A stretch of 64,000 bases of DNA, from the NCBI GenBank assembly GCA_963205305.1, contig CAUJIC010000025.1, positions 13,554 to 77,553 of the forward strand, in the 5' to 3' direction. Positions 21,493 to 27,688 of the stretch are shown piece by piece; positions within the stretch are counted from its first letter, which is position 1, and each line of letters begins with the position of its first letter. Position numbers and translations under genes: made by a program. The notes below the pieces were generated by a model. That model did not search any database and had not been told where the DNA came from. It saw only the letters and a list, made by a program, of their open reading frames with translations. This DNA comes from Pseudomonadota bacterium (GTDB taxonomy: Bacteria > Pseudomonadota > Alphaproteobacteria > Rickettsiales > UBA3002).

Positions 21493-21540
21493 TGGTGCCG
21501 GTTGCAGGAATTGAACCCGCGACCTTCGGTTTACAAAACC
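21493..21540 (-). repeat. attR: 48-bp copy of the tRNA-Thr 3' portion
   Basis: tggtgccggttgcaggaattgaacccgcgaccttcggtttacaaaacc is identical to 27614-27661. Confidence 0.9.
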
Positions 21541-21725
21541 TATTGAGAACACCTTCTATTGCCACTCCATGACATTCAGTGACAAGGAATCGTAGCAATA
21601 CCAACGATTTTTGCAAGCTGTTAGTTCGATTTGTTGTCACGCTGGTACATGGAGAATCAGCCATTTTCACGACTCATTGCTCCTATAGTGCTCCTCAGGA
21701 AACATCTTCTTAGATCATCCAGCCC

Positions 21726-24344
21726 TCAAAGTATAAAATCCGAGCTAAGCAGACTATGCGAGCCGACGAGCTGTATCTCGAAATTCGCACTACCATTACC
21801 GTCTGTATCAAACCCCACAATCGTATTGCCCGAAGCAATGGCGTAATTGATAGCAGGCGTGGCACCACCGCTAAACGCAGACGTACCTATGAACGCAAAT
21901 GTCCCTGCAAACGTTGATACATCGATGCGGTCTCCTAGCGCGTGACTGAAATCCGTAATGATATCGCGGTTGAGTGCACCCATGCCTGAGTCAGCGATTG
22001 CTTTATAAATGAAGTAATCAGCCCCAGCGCCACCTGTCGATGTATCAACACCCGCATTACCAGTGATGGAATCATTGCCTGCACCGCCTATAAGCGTGTT
22101 GGCAGAACTGTTCCCGTACAGATAATCCGCATAAGAAGAACCTGTAAGATTCTCGACATTGACCACATTATCCCATGCAGCATCACCATTCCAATAATTG
22201 TTGGCGCTCAGATCGGCACTTACCCACGTGGCGGATGTCTCGAACGAAAGTGTGTCCGTTCCTGAACCGCCATCGATATAATCGGAACCCAAGCCACCGA
22301 TGAGAACATCGTTGCCGTCACCGCCATAAAGCGTATCGTTGCCTACATTGCCTTCAAGCCGGTCATTGCCCGCAGCGCCTGTTAGTGTATCGTTACCGTC
22401 ACCGCCAGCCAATGCGTTTGCAGTTGCGTTACCAGCCAAATTATCGTTGTAAGCGGAGCCGATAATGTTTTCGACATTAACCACGTTGTCCCATGCCGCA
22501 TCACTGTTCCAATGGTTATTTGCTCCAAGATCAACATTAACCCACGCTGTCGAAGTTGCATACGAAATCGTATCTATTCCTGCACCACCATCAATGTAAT
22601 CCGAGCCTGCGCCACCCGCGATTAAGTCATCGCCATCGCCGCCATAAAGCGAATCGTTTCCAATATCGCCGTTGAGTGTATCGTTACCTGCCAGCCCAGA
22701 AATACTATCATTTCCGAGCCCGCCAACGATTGAGTTCGCCAACGCGTTACCAGCCAAATTATCATTAAATGCGGAACCGATAATGTTTTCGACATTGAGG
22801 ATATTGTCCCATGCCGCATCGCCGTTCCAATGATTGTTGGCATTGAGATCGACGTTCACCCATACGCTTGACGCAATGTATGCAACAGTATCTAATCCTG
22901 CGCCACCATCGATATAATCTGAACCTGCAGAGCCAGTGAGCATATCGTTGCCATCGCCGCCGAACAGCGTGTCGTTACCGATGCTACCATCCAGCGTGTC
23001 ATCGCCTTCGGCCCCAGTGAGACTATCGCTACCATTTAAGCCAATCAATACATCACCAGACACACCGCCGGTTATCGTATCATTGAAATTCGAGCCTTCG
23101 ATTTGTTCGATATTGTATATGATATCTCCAGCAGCAGCATCACCTATATTTACATTTGTGCCAAGGTTGACATTCACTGCAGCACTCGAGGCGACATACC
23201 TGACGGTATCGACTCCAAGTCCGCCATTTAACGTATCCGCGCCCGCACCGCCAACGAGAACATTATTGCCGCTGTTACCAGTGATAATGTTGTTTAGGCT
23301 ATTGCCAGTAAGCGATAAATTGGAAGTGCTCAAAGCTGTTAAATTTTCAAGATTACCGCCAAGAGAGTAGCTAATGCTTGTACGTACTGTATCAGAGCCT
23401 TCGCCCGTATTTTCCAGAATAGTATCGCTAACAGTATCAATGACATAGATGTCATTGCCGACGCCACCTATGAGCGAGTCGTTGCCTGCGCCGCCATCTA
23501 GGTAGTCACTGCCATTCCCGCCAGAGAGACTATCGTTACCTGCAGCACCGCTCAGGCTATCGCTACCATCACCACCAGAGATAGAATCGTTGCCACTGCC
23601 CCCCACGATTGTATTGTTTTCGGCGTCACCGTTTATAGTGGATGAATGTGTGTAGGATACAGAAAATGTGTTCCAGCTGTATACATCAGTAGGTCTGATA
23701 TAGAGCAGCCCATCATTTTCGGGAATGTCAACATTGATGATTGTTGCGTACTGAGTGCCCATAATAATATTGTAACTTACATCTTCGTATGCTTCGCGGA
23801 TTGCCAGCTGATGCGTGGCGGGATCAAATTCAAAAGCGATGCCCGTCCGATTGGATGCGCTGAAATAAGTGAACATAATAAATTTTCCGTTATCCTGTAA
23901 ATGGCCAGTCCATTGTGTGTGCGTATCAGAAAATTTTAGCATGAGCTCGTTATCTGACGACGAATCATCAATAGTCAGTGCATGTGCAGCATCCGTTTTT
24001 ATAAGGTATGTATCAATTCCGGCGCCTCCCATCAGCAGGCTGGCGCCAGTTGCTGCACCACCTAATGTATCATTACCCGAAGAACCAATGACCTTCTCCA
24101 CATTGGACATAACATCGCCAGCGGCATCGCCACTCGTCTGAGCTGTTACGAGGCTTAGATCAACGTTCACCGCACTGGCAGATTTGGCATAGCTCACAGT
24201 ATCAATACCTGCATCGCCATTTAGCATATCAGCGCCTGCACCACCAATAAGCAGGTCATCGCCACCGCCACCTGAGAGGCTGTCATTACCCAATGCACCA
24301 TCAATGGTGTTTGCGCCCGTATGCGATTGGCCTATAACCATCAT
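21726..24344 (-). CDS. Large RTX (repeats-in-toxin) calcium-binding repeat protein, probable type I secretion substrate
   Basis: Dozens of GGxGxDxUx nonapeptides (for example GGNGSDYLDGGAGNDSLIGGVGNDIY). Three ~97-aa super-repeats (...SDYIDGGAGxDT...WVNVDLxANNHWN.DAAWDN...). The acidic-then-hydrophobic C-terminus ...SSDFIL matches the tail of T1SS substrates. Confidence 0.85.
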   Translation of the reverse strand: MMVIGQSHTGANTIDGALGNDSLSGGGGDDLLIGGAGADMLNGDAGIDTVSYAKSASAVNVDLSLVTAQTSGDAAGDVMSNVEKVIGSSGNDTLGGAATGASLLMGGAGIDTYLIKTDAAHALTIDDSSSDNELMLKFSDTHTQWTGHLQDNGKFIMFTYFSASNRTGIAFEFDPATHQLAIREAYEDVSYNIIMGTQYATIINVDIPENDGLLYIRPTDVYSWNTFSVSYTHSSTINGDAENNTIVGGSGNDSISGGDGSDSLSGAAGNDSLSGGNGSDYLDGGAGNDSLIGGVGNDIYVIDTVSDTILENTGEGSDTVRTSISYSLGGNLENLTALSTSNLSLTGNSLNNIITGNSGNNVLVGGAGADTLNGGLGVDTVRYVASSAAVNVNLGTNVNIGDAAAGDIIYNIEQIEGSNFNDTITGGVSGDVLIGLNGSDSLTGAEGDDTLDGSIGNDTLFGGDGNDMLTGSAGSDYIDGGAGLDTVAYIASSVWVNVDLNANNHWNGDAAWDNILNVENIIGSAFNDNLAGNALANSIVGGLGNDSISGLAGNDTLNGDIGNDSLYGGDGDDLIAGGAGSDYIDGGAGIDTISYATSTAWVNVDLGANNHWNSDAAWDNVVNVENIIGSAYNDNLAGNATANALAGGDGNDTLTGAAGNDRLEGNVGNDTLYGGDGNDVLIGGLGSDYIDGGSGTDTLSFETSATWVSADLSANNYWNGDAAWDNVVNVENLTGSSYADYLYGNSSANTLIGGAGNDSITGNAGVDTSTGGAGADYFIYKAIADSGMGALNRDIITDFSHALGDRIDVSTFAGTFAFIGTSAFSGGATPAINYAIASGNTIVGFDTDGNGSANFEIQLVGSHSLLSSDFIL

Positions 24345-26332: not shown

Positions 26333-27410
26333 CGATAGCGGACGTATGTGTTTTTATTAGATGAATGTACCGCATTGTCACCTGAATGCTGCTGTGACCC
26401 AAGATTTCTGAAATCTCGTGCAGACCAGCGCCATGCTGAGCTAGAAATGAAGCAGCACTGTGTCTTAAGTCATGAAAATGGAAGTTTTCAAGCATCGCGC
26501 GTTCACGTGCTTTCTCCCACGCACTACGAAAGCCATTTGGGCGCGAAAAATCGAATGGTGAGGCGAAAAGATATTTTTGCTGGGGTGGTTTAGGGCGCTC
26601 ATATACCTCTTTAATGAGTTGGTAGGCAGGGTCTGCAATATAGAGAACGCGCGGCTTTTTGTTTTTAGTAATGGGGAGTAGTATTTTACGCTGCTTAAGG
26701 TCGATATTCGGTATTTGAATTTTCTCAATTTCACTACGCCTCGCCCCCGTGGTAATAGCAAGCACGACAATAGTATGAAGGTCGATGTTGTCAGATTTCT
26801 TACATGCCTGAATCAAAGTTTTCAGCTCATCTTCTTGTAAATAGCGACTGCGCCCCGTTGGTTCAGGGAGTAGCTTTATTTCCGCGATAGGATTCTCAGC
26901 CAGCCAACCCCACTCTGTGCACGCCTCATTTAGTAGGCAATTTAGTGCTCCTACATAGCGATTGACCCGCGCATTCGATAACTTTGATAGTTTAGGGTTG
27001 TTTCTGATGTGGTGATTTTTGAGTAAATCTCTTTGTTGGAGTATGCGGTCTTTCGATATTTCACTGAGTTTGGCCGAACCTAGTTTGTGCTCCCACCAAT
27101 TTAGAAATGGTAATACCTCCTTGTAACGGCGGGCATTAGAGAGTGCCAGATTCTGGCTATACCTCTCAATAGCCTCACTAAGGGTCTTCTTATGATGGGA
27201 TACTTTGCCGAATGCCCGCTGATGTTTGTATTCATATTCTGTCTTATTAGCCCATTCATTCGCGTCGGTCTTACGGTCAAAGGTTTTTGATGTGCGCGGA
27301 CACCCCTTTAAGGTGATGGTCGCTTTATATTTTTTTATAGTCTTAGCCTCCCCGCTTGGTGTCTTATGCTGGTATTCTCTGACTTCAATCGTGGCCATTA
27401 CTGTCTCCAT
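26286..27410 (-). CDS. int: Tyrosine recombinase / phage-type integrase
   Basis: C-terminal catalytic residues: ...TGARRSEI..., HFHDLRHSAASFLAQ, LGHSSIQVTMRYIHL (R..HxxR..Y). Adjacent to the tRNA-Thr 3' end. Confidence 0.9.
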   Translation of the reverse strand: METVMATIEVREYQHKTPSGEAKTIKKYKATITLKGCPRTSKTFDRKTDANEWANKTEYEYKHQRAFGKVSHHKKTLSEAIERYSQNLALSNARRYKEVLPFLNWWEHKLGSAKLSEISKDRILQQRDLLKNHHIRNNPKLSKLSNARVNRYVGALNCLLNEACTEWGWLAENPIAEIKLLPEPTGRSRYLQEDELKTLIQACKKSDNIDLHTIVVLAITTGARRSEIEKIQIPNIDLKQRKILLPITKNKKPRVLYIADPAYQLIKEVYERPKPPQQKYLFASPFDFSRPNGFRSAWEKARERAMLENFHFHDLRHSAASFLAQHGAGLHEISEILGHSSIQVTMRYIHLIKTHTSAIVESTAAKVFSYEQHS

Positions 27411-27613
27411 AGCTCAATGAGTGACATGTATTCTTATGGAGGCTTTTCTACACACACTGAGACTGCCAACCGTATCGGAAATATAGAGTTTTCTACTTTT
27501 CCGACTCCATAGGCAGCACCAATGTTCCGTTCCATAAGAACAGTCACCAAGTCATGAAGATTGAAAGCCAGTGCTCCTATAGTGCTCCTGCACTATGAGG
27601 AAGGTCTGGAAAC

Positions 27614-27688
27614 TGGTGCCGGTTGCAGGAATTGAACCCGCGACCTTCGGTTTACAAAACCGCTGCTCTACCCCTGAGCTAAACCGGC
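27614..27688 (-). tRNA. tRNA-Thr (anticodon UGU)
   Basis: The reverse complement GCCGGTTTAGCTCAGGGGTAGAGCAGCGGTTTTGTAAACCGAAGGTCGCGGGTTCAATTCCTGCAACCGGCACCA folds as a cloverleaf. Its 3' 48 nt form attL. Confidence 0.9.

Follow-up and report, generated by a model that had tools for sequence, protein, structure and literature searches.

Tyrosine-integrase islands that insert into tRNA genes share a recognizable layout. The integrase gene lies beside an intact tRNA 3′ end, a block of identity reaching from the anticodon stem to that 3′ end recurs at the opposite boundary, the DNA has a foreign base composition, and the segment is absent from a related genome. Such a block is the usual one for elements that cross over in the anticodon loop, a class of integration sites reportedly described by Williams in 2002. 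An island with all these features lies in the 64,000-nucleotide stretch of alphaproteobacterial DNA analysed here (positions 13,554 to 77,553 of contig CAUJIC010000025.1, assembly GCA_963205305.1; hereafter the window), where it occupies 6.1 kb next to tRNA-Thr(UGU). It departs from the common type in being very small, in lacking a directionality factor as well as replication and transfer genes, and in having a backbone that is visibly truncated compared with that of its own relatives. The best overall explanation is a reduced tRNA-Thr island with a two-gene cargo, in which the gene for an RTX protein is frameshifted; we give this reading a probability of about 0.78.

Other described systems resemble single parts of the island. 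In ICEMlSym R7A, FseA activates the excisionase promoter (rdfS), and the DUF6499 domain is marked by an AWEFLRRN motif (PMC10359603). RTX adhesins possess an N-terminal retention module (10.1101/2025.09.30.679566).

Integration into tRNA-Thr(UGU)

ARAGORN and a reading of the sequence place an intact tRNA-Thr(tgt), the integration target, on the minus strand at 27614–27688. The 3′ 48 nt of this gene (27614–27661) recur exactly and in the same orientation at 21493–21540, at a start-to-start distance of 6121 nt, and repeat search finds a wider match (21490–21540 versus 27611–27661) around this exact core. By our own estimate, the chance expectation for such a repeat in 64 kb is ~1e-20. On the tRNA strand, the repeat (family D5) has the 5′ arm of the anticodon stem at one end and the terminal CCA at the other. 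The copy at 27614–27661 is the attachment (att) core inside the tRNA gene, and the copy at 21493–21540 is a displaced tRNA 3′ fragment at the far boundary of the island. GC content between the repeats is 0.40–0.51, compared with 0.52–0.61 in the flanks. All coding in the island is on the minus strand, in five open reading frames (ORFs), with the integrase gene 215 nt from the tRNA. An earlier, sequence-only reading of this DNA had reported the exact repeat of the tRNA 3′ end and the AT-richer interior, and both are confirmed; the four proteins in its gene list are also present, but it had omitted a 258-amino-acid (aa) ORF at 24301–25077.

The segment is a tyrosine-integrase insertion into tRNA-Thr with perfect att repeats, a genuine island of a well-known kind. 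On the favoured reading, the tyrosine integrase joined a circular element to the 3′ half of tRNA-Thr(UGU), the portion that starts with the anticodon stem and ends in CCA. This recombination regenerated the intact tRNA at 27614–27688 and left the displaced 48-nt copy at 21493–21540.

The integrase gene (26286–27398, minus strand) encodes an apparently intact protein of 370 aa, whose start at 27398 was set from homology and from gene calls on an identical contig. The protein matches PF00589 (E 7.8e-35) and the integrase family phrog_1 (E 1e-64). In a comparison with 57 homologues, it retains all columns conserved in 95% or more of them, among which are R220, K245, H309, R312, H335, and Y344. 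The earlier description of the integrase as intact is thereby borne out, and the inactivating changes that the sequence-only reading had allowed for, beyond the motifs it could read, are absent from the conserved columns of these 57 homologues.

The closest relatives of the integrase in protein search are 63% identical; the word-indexed search missed a 100%-identical integrase on Logan contig L085, and an absent top match in it is no proof of absence. Integrases on contigs L081, L083, and L084 are 60–62.5% identical, and each lies just downstream of a tRNA-Thr(tgt). In L084 (ENA ERZ27314191 k119_158036), which carries the 62.5%-identical integrase at 9150–10548, the neighbourhood is that of the window, with genes for a histidine kinase, GshA, an RNA methyltransferase, UbiA, and an EAL protein, followed by tRNA-Thr and the integrase. 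The flanking host proteins of L084 are only 45–66% identical to those of the window. The UbiA–EAL–tRNA-Thr locus is a recurrent target of this island family, and the integrase clade is specific for tRNA-Thr(UGU).

A UbiA-based scan of species-representative genomes returned only uncultured alphaproteobacterial metagenome-assembled genomes, annotated as "Rickettsiales bacterium" or "Alphaproteobacteria bacterium". The closest relative, L003, is 78% identical to the window in UbiA, 93% in the EAL protein, and 98% in ribonucleotide reductase. Its gene order is UbiA, EAL, tRNA-Thr, a 247-aa gene, tRNA-Arg(ccg), and ribonucleotide reductase, with the two tRNAs 1.1 kb apart and no island gene. Nucleotide collinearity between L003, a different species with a different tRNA-Thr sequence, and the window covers 30049–27854, the tRNA, and 19968–17522; it ends at the two tRNAs, with nothing common between them. 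At the 80 UbiA loci taken from species-representative genomes, no island protein has a homologue, and this includes the integrase, the RTX protein, and its partner. The site without an island in L003 and the lack of homologues in the 80 loci indicate that the segment is an insertion and not an ancient, fixed feature of the lineage. A comparison with strains lacking the island, as the sequence-only reading had proposed, thus finds the same flanks without it in the nearest species, and the ancient island present in all relatives that it had considered is not what L003 shows.

A 384-aa ORF (19995–21149, minus strand) fills the interval 19969–21492, which separates the convergent tRNA-Arg(ccg) from the distal att copy; no match to it was found in Pfam, NCBIfam, PADLOC, or PHROGs. 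L003 has an unrelated gene, the 247-aa gene mentioned above, in its place. The presence of different genes at the same position suggests that the tRNA-Thr/tRNA-Arg interval is a variable hotspot independent of the island.

Backbone reduction and mobility

Next to the integrase gene, and overlapping it, lies the gene of a truncated FseA-like regulator (25886–26302, minus strand), whose start at 26302 (138 aa) follows from homology and from gene calls on an identical contig. Its match to PF20109 (Trans_reg_dom, formerly DUF6499; E 8e-8) confirms the DUF6499-like regulator named earlier from the sequence. The arrangement resembles FseA/QseM control in ICEMlSym R7A in that a DUF6499 gene overlaps the integrase gene, with the motif AWEFIRRS here in place of AWEFLRRN (PMC10359603). 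It differs in that the window protein stops after DUF6499: the protein has no Pfam DUF2285 match, its homology to relatives of 219–266 aa ends at about residue 103 and resumes in no frame, and an unrelated lysine-rich tail follows. The DUF2285 DNA-binding domain of FseA (PMC10359603) is therefore lacking in every frame, although Pfam detects no DUF2285 in the proteins of the L081, L083, and L084 relatives either. A terminator-like hairpin at 25808–25838 (minus strand), found by consensus scan only, follows the regulator gene and marks the candidate boundary between backbone and cargo. A consensus promoter scan was set aside, as its signal was no better than that of shuffled sequence.

The relatives show what a fuller backbone looks like. 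In L081 and L083, the integrase gene is followed by an overlapping gene for a PF20109 protein of 264–266 aa and then by a ~70-aa gene. Next comes a 90-aa gene without a domain match in L081, and a 103-aa gene with an HTH_17 excisionase/AlpA-type domain in L083; in the latter, the regulator precedes a small HTH_17 gene, in keeping with the action of FseA on the rdfS promoter (PMC10359603). Further along, both contigs carry two genes of 330–390 aa, a resolvase or second tyrosine recombinase, and cargo. L084, which ends 1.3 kb past the integrase, retains a 219-aa PF20109 protein and an 83-aa gene. No att repeat of at least 12 nt was found within the 10-kb flanks in L081 and L083.

When the backbone proteins of these relatives were searched against the window by tblastn, only the integrase (60–62.5% identity) and residues 1 to ~103 of the regulator (48%) were found; the HTH_17 protein and the small proteins of the relatives have no homologue anywhere in the window. 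The intergenic DNA of the island holds no small ORF of excisionase character. Scans of the five island ORFs identified no relaxase, coupling-protein, or mating-pair gene, and PADLOC gave no defence-protein match for any island protein. The absence of the relatives' backbone beyond the integrase and ~100 regulator residues suggests that the island is a reduced derivative. Judged by its sequence, it is a stub of a larger island type, with a backbone apparently cut ~100 codons into the regulator.

The surviving parts would then be the integrase, the two core sites, and an 18-nt repeat in two copies. The first copy of this repeat, TGCTCCTATAGTGCTCCT, is at 27572–27589, 24 nt inside the tRNA-proximal core. 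The second (repeat family D15) is at 21678–21695, which places it 137 nt inward from the distal core and 30 nt beyond the stop codon of the RTX gene. Even at 3 mismatches, the 18-mer has two matches in the 64-kb window, both in the island, with 0.04 expected. Because the copies flank the core in the deduced attP, they are probably arm-type binding sites of the integrase. Both island ends thus look complete despite the reduced backbone.

Independent assemblies also contain the island sequence, two of them from Logan, one from ENA, and one from a JGI metagenome, with no mismatch where fragments overlap, and the island is on record under its 258-aa and 164-aa proteins. A 6133-nt Logan contig corresponds to window positions 21511–27643 and ends exactly 30 nt into each repeat. 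Its interpretation as a circle was rejected, as the ends reflect a k=31 graph break and are uninformative on circularisation. The junction search suggested by the sequence-only reading was run on JGI metagenome contigs with a degenerate pattern for attL, attR, attB, and attP. It found the occupied tRNA side in a single match of attR type, and neither an empty attB nor a circular attP junction among these contigs. The matching contig, L094 (JGI Ga0075152_10167573, positions 1–1259), is 99.7% identical to window 28046–27270, covering the end of the EAL gene, tRNA-Thr, the att core, and the start of the integrase gene. Past integrase codon ~46, the contig instead encodes the C-terminal part of another tyrosine recombinase, which shares 57% identity with the second one in L083. 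L094 is either a population or deletion variant of a larger ancestral island or an assembly chimera.

The earlier reading had called the element possibly still excisable. The loss of an Xis-like gene, of most of the FseA-like regulator, and of all other backbone genes relative to the relatives weakens this view. Given its gene content, the island is probably unable to excise unaided, and it could at best do so by integrase alone or with help in trans.

The RTX gene and its partner

The 872-aa ORF at 21726–24344 (minus strand) contains β-roll repeats in 15 PF00353 stretches (E 1.2e-77) and ends in DFIL. Its residues 727–871 match positions 316–461 of the 462 in the serralysin family model, and serralysins are known type I secretion substrates. 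This C-terminal match supports the type I secretion signal that had been proposed for the protein, a kind of signal that itself has no strict consensus. The likeness to serralysin-type substrates of type I secretion systems (T1SS) concerns the last ~145 residues, which match the C-terminal RTX and secretion region of the model; the window protein differs in lacking a protease domain and scores 195 bits against a family cut-off of 500 bits. Tandem GGxGxD repeats together with a C-terminal secretion region place it among RTX type I substrates. No T1SS transporter, membrane-fusion, or TolC-like gene was found among 37 of the 51 window ORFs of at least 180 aa, including all those above 390 aa, and to this extent the earlier statement that the window has no T1SS genes stands.

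The 872-aa ORF appears to be the 3′ part of a longer gene. Upstream of it, and overlapping it by 44 nt, is the 258-aa ORF (24301–25077, minus strand), which encodes a conserved, unannotated N-terminal domain recognized by profile search and modelled with AlphaFold2. The 258-aa ORF has a Shine-Dalgarno sequence, as does the 164-aa ORF before it, whose start is preceded by a Shine-Dalgarno-like GAGGGA. The 872-aa ORF has no Shine-Dalgarno sequence and an in-frame stop 4 codons before its ATG. Within the overlap, at 24313–24318, the coding strand reads GGGC with one extra base. Removal of one G from the GGG at 24316–24318 yields a single ORF of 1,116 codons. Its junction, ...RPIAYGANTIDGALGND..., fits the family motif RPIxYG(T)xxxD and, given as ...LWNTGITKFIDTADDGYRPIAYGANTIDGALGNDSLSGG..., the family pattern LWxxGxTKFLDxxxRPIxYG(T)xxxD.

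Since the domain is usually fused to RTX repeats, the repaired frame is open, and its junction is family-typical, the two ORFs are best read as one 1,116-codon gene split by a +1 frameshift. The alternative that two genuine overlapping genes are the ancestral state was rejected: most of the longer homologues are fusions, and the other frame carries on the junction motif. The same frameshift sequence occurs in Logan contig L085, recorded in 2 samples, which makes a random assembly error unlikely. The RTX gene is most likely inactive, or at least does not yield the full-length protein. The intact large RTX protein of the sequence-only reading is accordingly replaced by a fragment of a broken gene, and the proper annotation here would be a frameshifted 1,116-codon gene instead of an 872-aa effector and a hypothetical protein.

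The N-terminal domain belongs to a large family. The 258-aa ORF had only three matches in the word-indexed search, whereas a profile search of 1.84 billion representatives found 967 proteins with the ~220-residue N-terminal domain. In almost every one of the 150 matches listed, the domain begins no later than residue ~12, and protein lengths reach 4025 aa. Among the 89 members that reach 400 aa or more, 67 have at least three GGxGxD motifs downstream of the domain. PF00353 was detected in each of the eight members scanned, in some of them together with VWA, cadherin-like, or Ig-like domains. One homologue, a 512-aa protein on contig L086, has the domain (35% identity, residues 1–254) fused to RTX-like repeats. 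The domain itself has no Pfam or NCBIfam match, and a sequence comparison of the family with the PDB and Pfam returned nothing even at E ≤10.

A model built from a 3-sequence alignment reached a predicted local distance difference test (pLDDT) score of 36.8, and a 45-sequence alignment was used instead. The resulting AlphaFold2 model has a pLDDT of 87.8 and a predicted template modelling score (pTM) of 0.83. Foldseek against the PDB gave a single notable match, to PaeM (4g76; E 7e-3, probability 0.96), with a TM-score of 0.30 and a root-mean-square deviation of 10.8 Å. Comparison of the family profile with colicin M by hhalign (E 0.077, probability <1%) sets a near-invariant DNFDF opposite the catalytic DKYDF. 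The His-Arg of the colicin M motif DxYD(x5)HR is absent from the family, and none of the 45 members has a Pfam Colicin_M match or a PDB sequence match.

Immediately before the RTX gene is the gene for a 164-aa protein (25108–25602, minus strand) with one N-terminal hydrophobic segment, which would serve as a membrane anchor, and four conserved cysteines. It has no match in Pfam, NCBIfam, PADLOC, or PHROGs. The sequence-only reading had called it a membrane-anchored orphan, a label that its homologues contradict. Distant homologues share the N-terminal anchor, a G..C..(K/R)W(L/M)..(D/E)E motif, a CC pair, and a C-terminal Cys, and at four further sites their genes directly precede RTX genes that encode the N-terminal domain described above. 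Contig L086 has two partner copies, each followed by such an RTX gene; L095 has a 170-aa partner gene followed by the gene of a 1653-aa protein; and in L176 an HlyD-family membrane-fusion gene precedes a 159-aa partner gene and the gene of a 3126-aa protein. These neighbourhoods suggest that the 164-aa gene and the RTX gene form a conserved module linked to type I secretion.

Further observations concern the surroundings of these homologues. A close homologue of the 164-aa protein (50% identity; contig L090, ENA ERZ1758440 NODE_2545, 4145–4636) is encoded by a solitary gene, flanked by an MFS transporter gene on one side and a HemN-like gene on the other, and the vicinity is free of RTX genes. 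On L086 (JGI Ga0574372_04439, 4363–10636), serine recombinase genes flank three pairs of membrane-protein and RTX-type genes, encoding 255 aa and 744 aa (the latter with a phospholipase-like N-terminus), 155 aa and 512 aa, and 167 aa and a truncated 211 aa. In their C-terminal regions, the 744-aa and 512-aa proteins are nearly the same, a pattern known from polymorphic toxin loci.

Competing explanations and the role of the cargo

The island could in principle be the remnant of a prophage or phage satellite and not a genomic island. Its integrase matches phage integrase families (phrog_1), and the gene order of the relatives, with integrase, regulator, small HTH gene, and large proteins of no recognized kind, loosely recalls satellites. 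We regard this as very improbable. The best viral relative of the integrase among 2.9 million viral contigs is only 38% identical, compared with 63% in non-viral contigs, and no island protein other than the integrase has a match in PHROGs, which together argue that the element is not phage-like; the gene lists of L081, L083, and L084 also show no capsid, terminase, or primase domain. It is unlikely that the frameshift leaves the gene functional, whether as an assembly or consensus error, through +1 ribosomal frameshifting, or as two functioning polypeptides. Both halves are otherwise open and well conserved, a separately encoded N-terminal retention module has been reported for some RTX adhesins (preprint 10.1101/2025.09.30.679566), and FseA genes of related mobile elements use +1 frameshifting (PMC10359603). 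Against this, the sequence is identical in the Logan contig, which is on record from two samples; nothing at the site was recognized as a known shift-prone motif; and no ribosome-binding site precedes the downstream ORF. The GGG run is also short for a homopolymer sequencing error. The view of the sequence-only reading, in which a recent island excises itself and delivers an intact secreted RTX effector, draws on the perfect 48-nt repeats and intact integrase, the retention of both putative arm sites, the island-free nearest species representative, and fragments from four metagenome data sets without mismatches in their overlaps. It is nevertheless doubtful in view of the missing directionality factor and truncated regulator, an RTX gene that is frameshifted and whose 3′ ORF lacks a ribosome-binding site, the lack of an attB or attP junction among the JGI metagenome contigs, and the lack of a T1SS gene in the scanned window ORFs.

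Several points also weigh against the reduced, frameshifted island that we favour. Assemblies of related read sets could all contain the frameshift as a common error, or ribosomal frameshifting could bypass it. The loss of autonomy is deduced from gene content; some islands excise with integrase alone, and a directionality factor from the host or another element could act in trans. Perfect repeats, a perfect pair of arm sites, and an intact integrase would also fit a fully functional minimal element. The role of the cargo pair is drawn from gene neighbourhood and domain position, and the L090 homologue of the 164-aa protein has a chromosomal context without an RTX neighbour.

The cargo would consist of a small membrane-anchored, Cys-rich protein and a 1,116-codon RTX protein with a ~220-residue N-terminal domain, RTX repeats, and a type I secretion C-terminus. 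Its most likely role, put forward tentatively and at slightly less than even odds, is that of an RTX protein exported by a T1SS and retained at the surface, its N-terminal domain cooperating with the small membrane protein on the periplasmic side. This would follow the retention logic of RTX adhesins, as the non-RTX domain lies at the N-terminus of T1SS substrates, many of them with adhesin modules. Like adhesins of the LapA/MpIBP type, the family combines a conserved non-RTX N-terminal domain, RTX repeats, and a C-terminal T1SS signal; some members carry VWA, cadherin-like, or Ig-like modules, and one lies beside an HlyD-type gene. Unlike them, it matches neither the retention-module nor the BapA-prefix models of NCBIfam, the window protein lacks Ig-like extenders and any Ig-like or cadherin-like domain, no LapG/LapD-type genes were seen, and a small membrane-anchored, Cys-rich partner gene is conserved instead.

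A toxin-immunity pair is a less probable role for the cargo, and we consider it unlikely. The N-terminal domain would then be a distant colicin M-like toxin, one that cleaves lipid II, carried out of the cell on an RTX/T1SS scaffold, and the Cys-rich membrane protein, facing the periplasm, would confer immunity. PaeM is the only notable Foldseek match of a confident model, DNFDF is set on the catalytic DKYDF, and a membrane-anchored protein is encoded next door. The immunity protein of colicin M, Cmi, is likewise small, with an N-terminal anchor, and faces the periplasm. The L086 array, in which two RTX genes differ in their N-terminal domains (one phospholipase-like) and are nearly identical at the C-terminus, is in line with such a pair, and the solitary gene in L090 resembles an orphan immunity gene. 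The fold resemblance is weak, however, given the TM-score and deviation noted above, the profile similarity is not significant, with a probability below 1%, and both the catalytic His-Arg and any Pfam Colicin_M or PDB sequence match are missing. The family also includes many giant proteins, in which VWA, cadherin-like, or Ig-like modules typical of adhesins occur. In colicin M-like bacteriocins such as ColM, PaeM, and the pectocins, moreover, the toxin domain is C-terminal, behind a TonB-dependent uptake domain, whereas here the domain is N-terminal on an RTX scaffold. Surface retention thus remains our preferred role for the cargo. The broader idea that the pair defines an undescribed T1SS accessory system, by retention through a periplasmic partner or as a colicin M-related toxin with its immunity protein, is possible but for now speculative.

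Elsewhere in the window, a VirB/VirD4 type IV secretion cluster extends over 45.7–57 kb (region 45722–57949), ~18 kb outside the att sites of the island, with genes for a coupling protein and for VirB11-, VirB10-, VirB9-, VirB8-, VirB6-, and VirB4-like proteins. A TraX-like gene (57170–57949) follows the cluster, also outside the island. In the island itself, domain scans of the ORFs support the earlier statement that it holds no excisionase, T1SS, or conjugation gene. No conjugation gene belongs to the island, a difference from ICEMlSym R7A (PMC10359603), and the sequence-only claim to this effect is correct for the interior, while the VirB/VirD4 and TraX genes are present elsewhere in the window. 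Two tandem, overlapping paralogous genes at 61150–63424 encode DUF2336 proteins of 381 and 382 aa.

As an island, the element is a textbook case and adds little. It does show one integrase clade targeting tRNA-Thr(UGU) across distant, uncultured alphaproteobacteria, and it suggests that such islands can decay to a stub of integrase and cargo yet keep perfect att sites, a caution that perfect repeats and an intact integrase need not mean mobility. What novelty there is lies only with the N-terminal domain family, which is unannotated, and with the partner gene conserved beside it. If the pair is an accessory system of the kind outlined above, the tRNA-Thr island would be one vehicle spreading this cargo module. 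If the domain proves to be part of a retention device or of a toxin-immunity pair, this would inform annotation in ~1,000 representative clusters.

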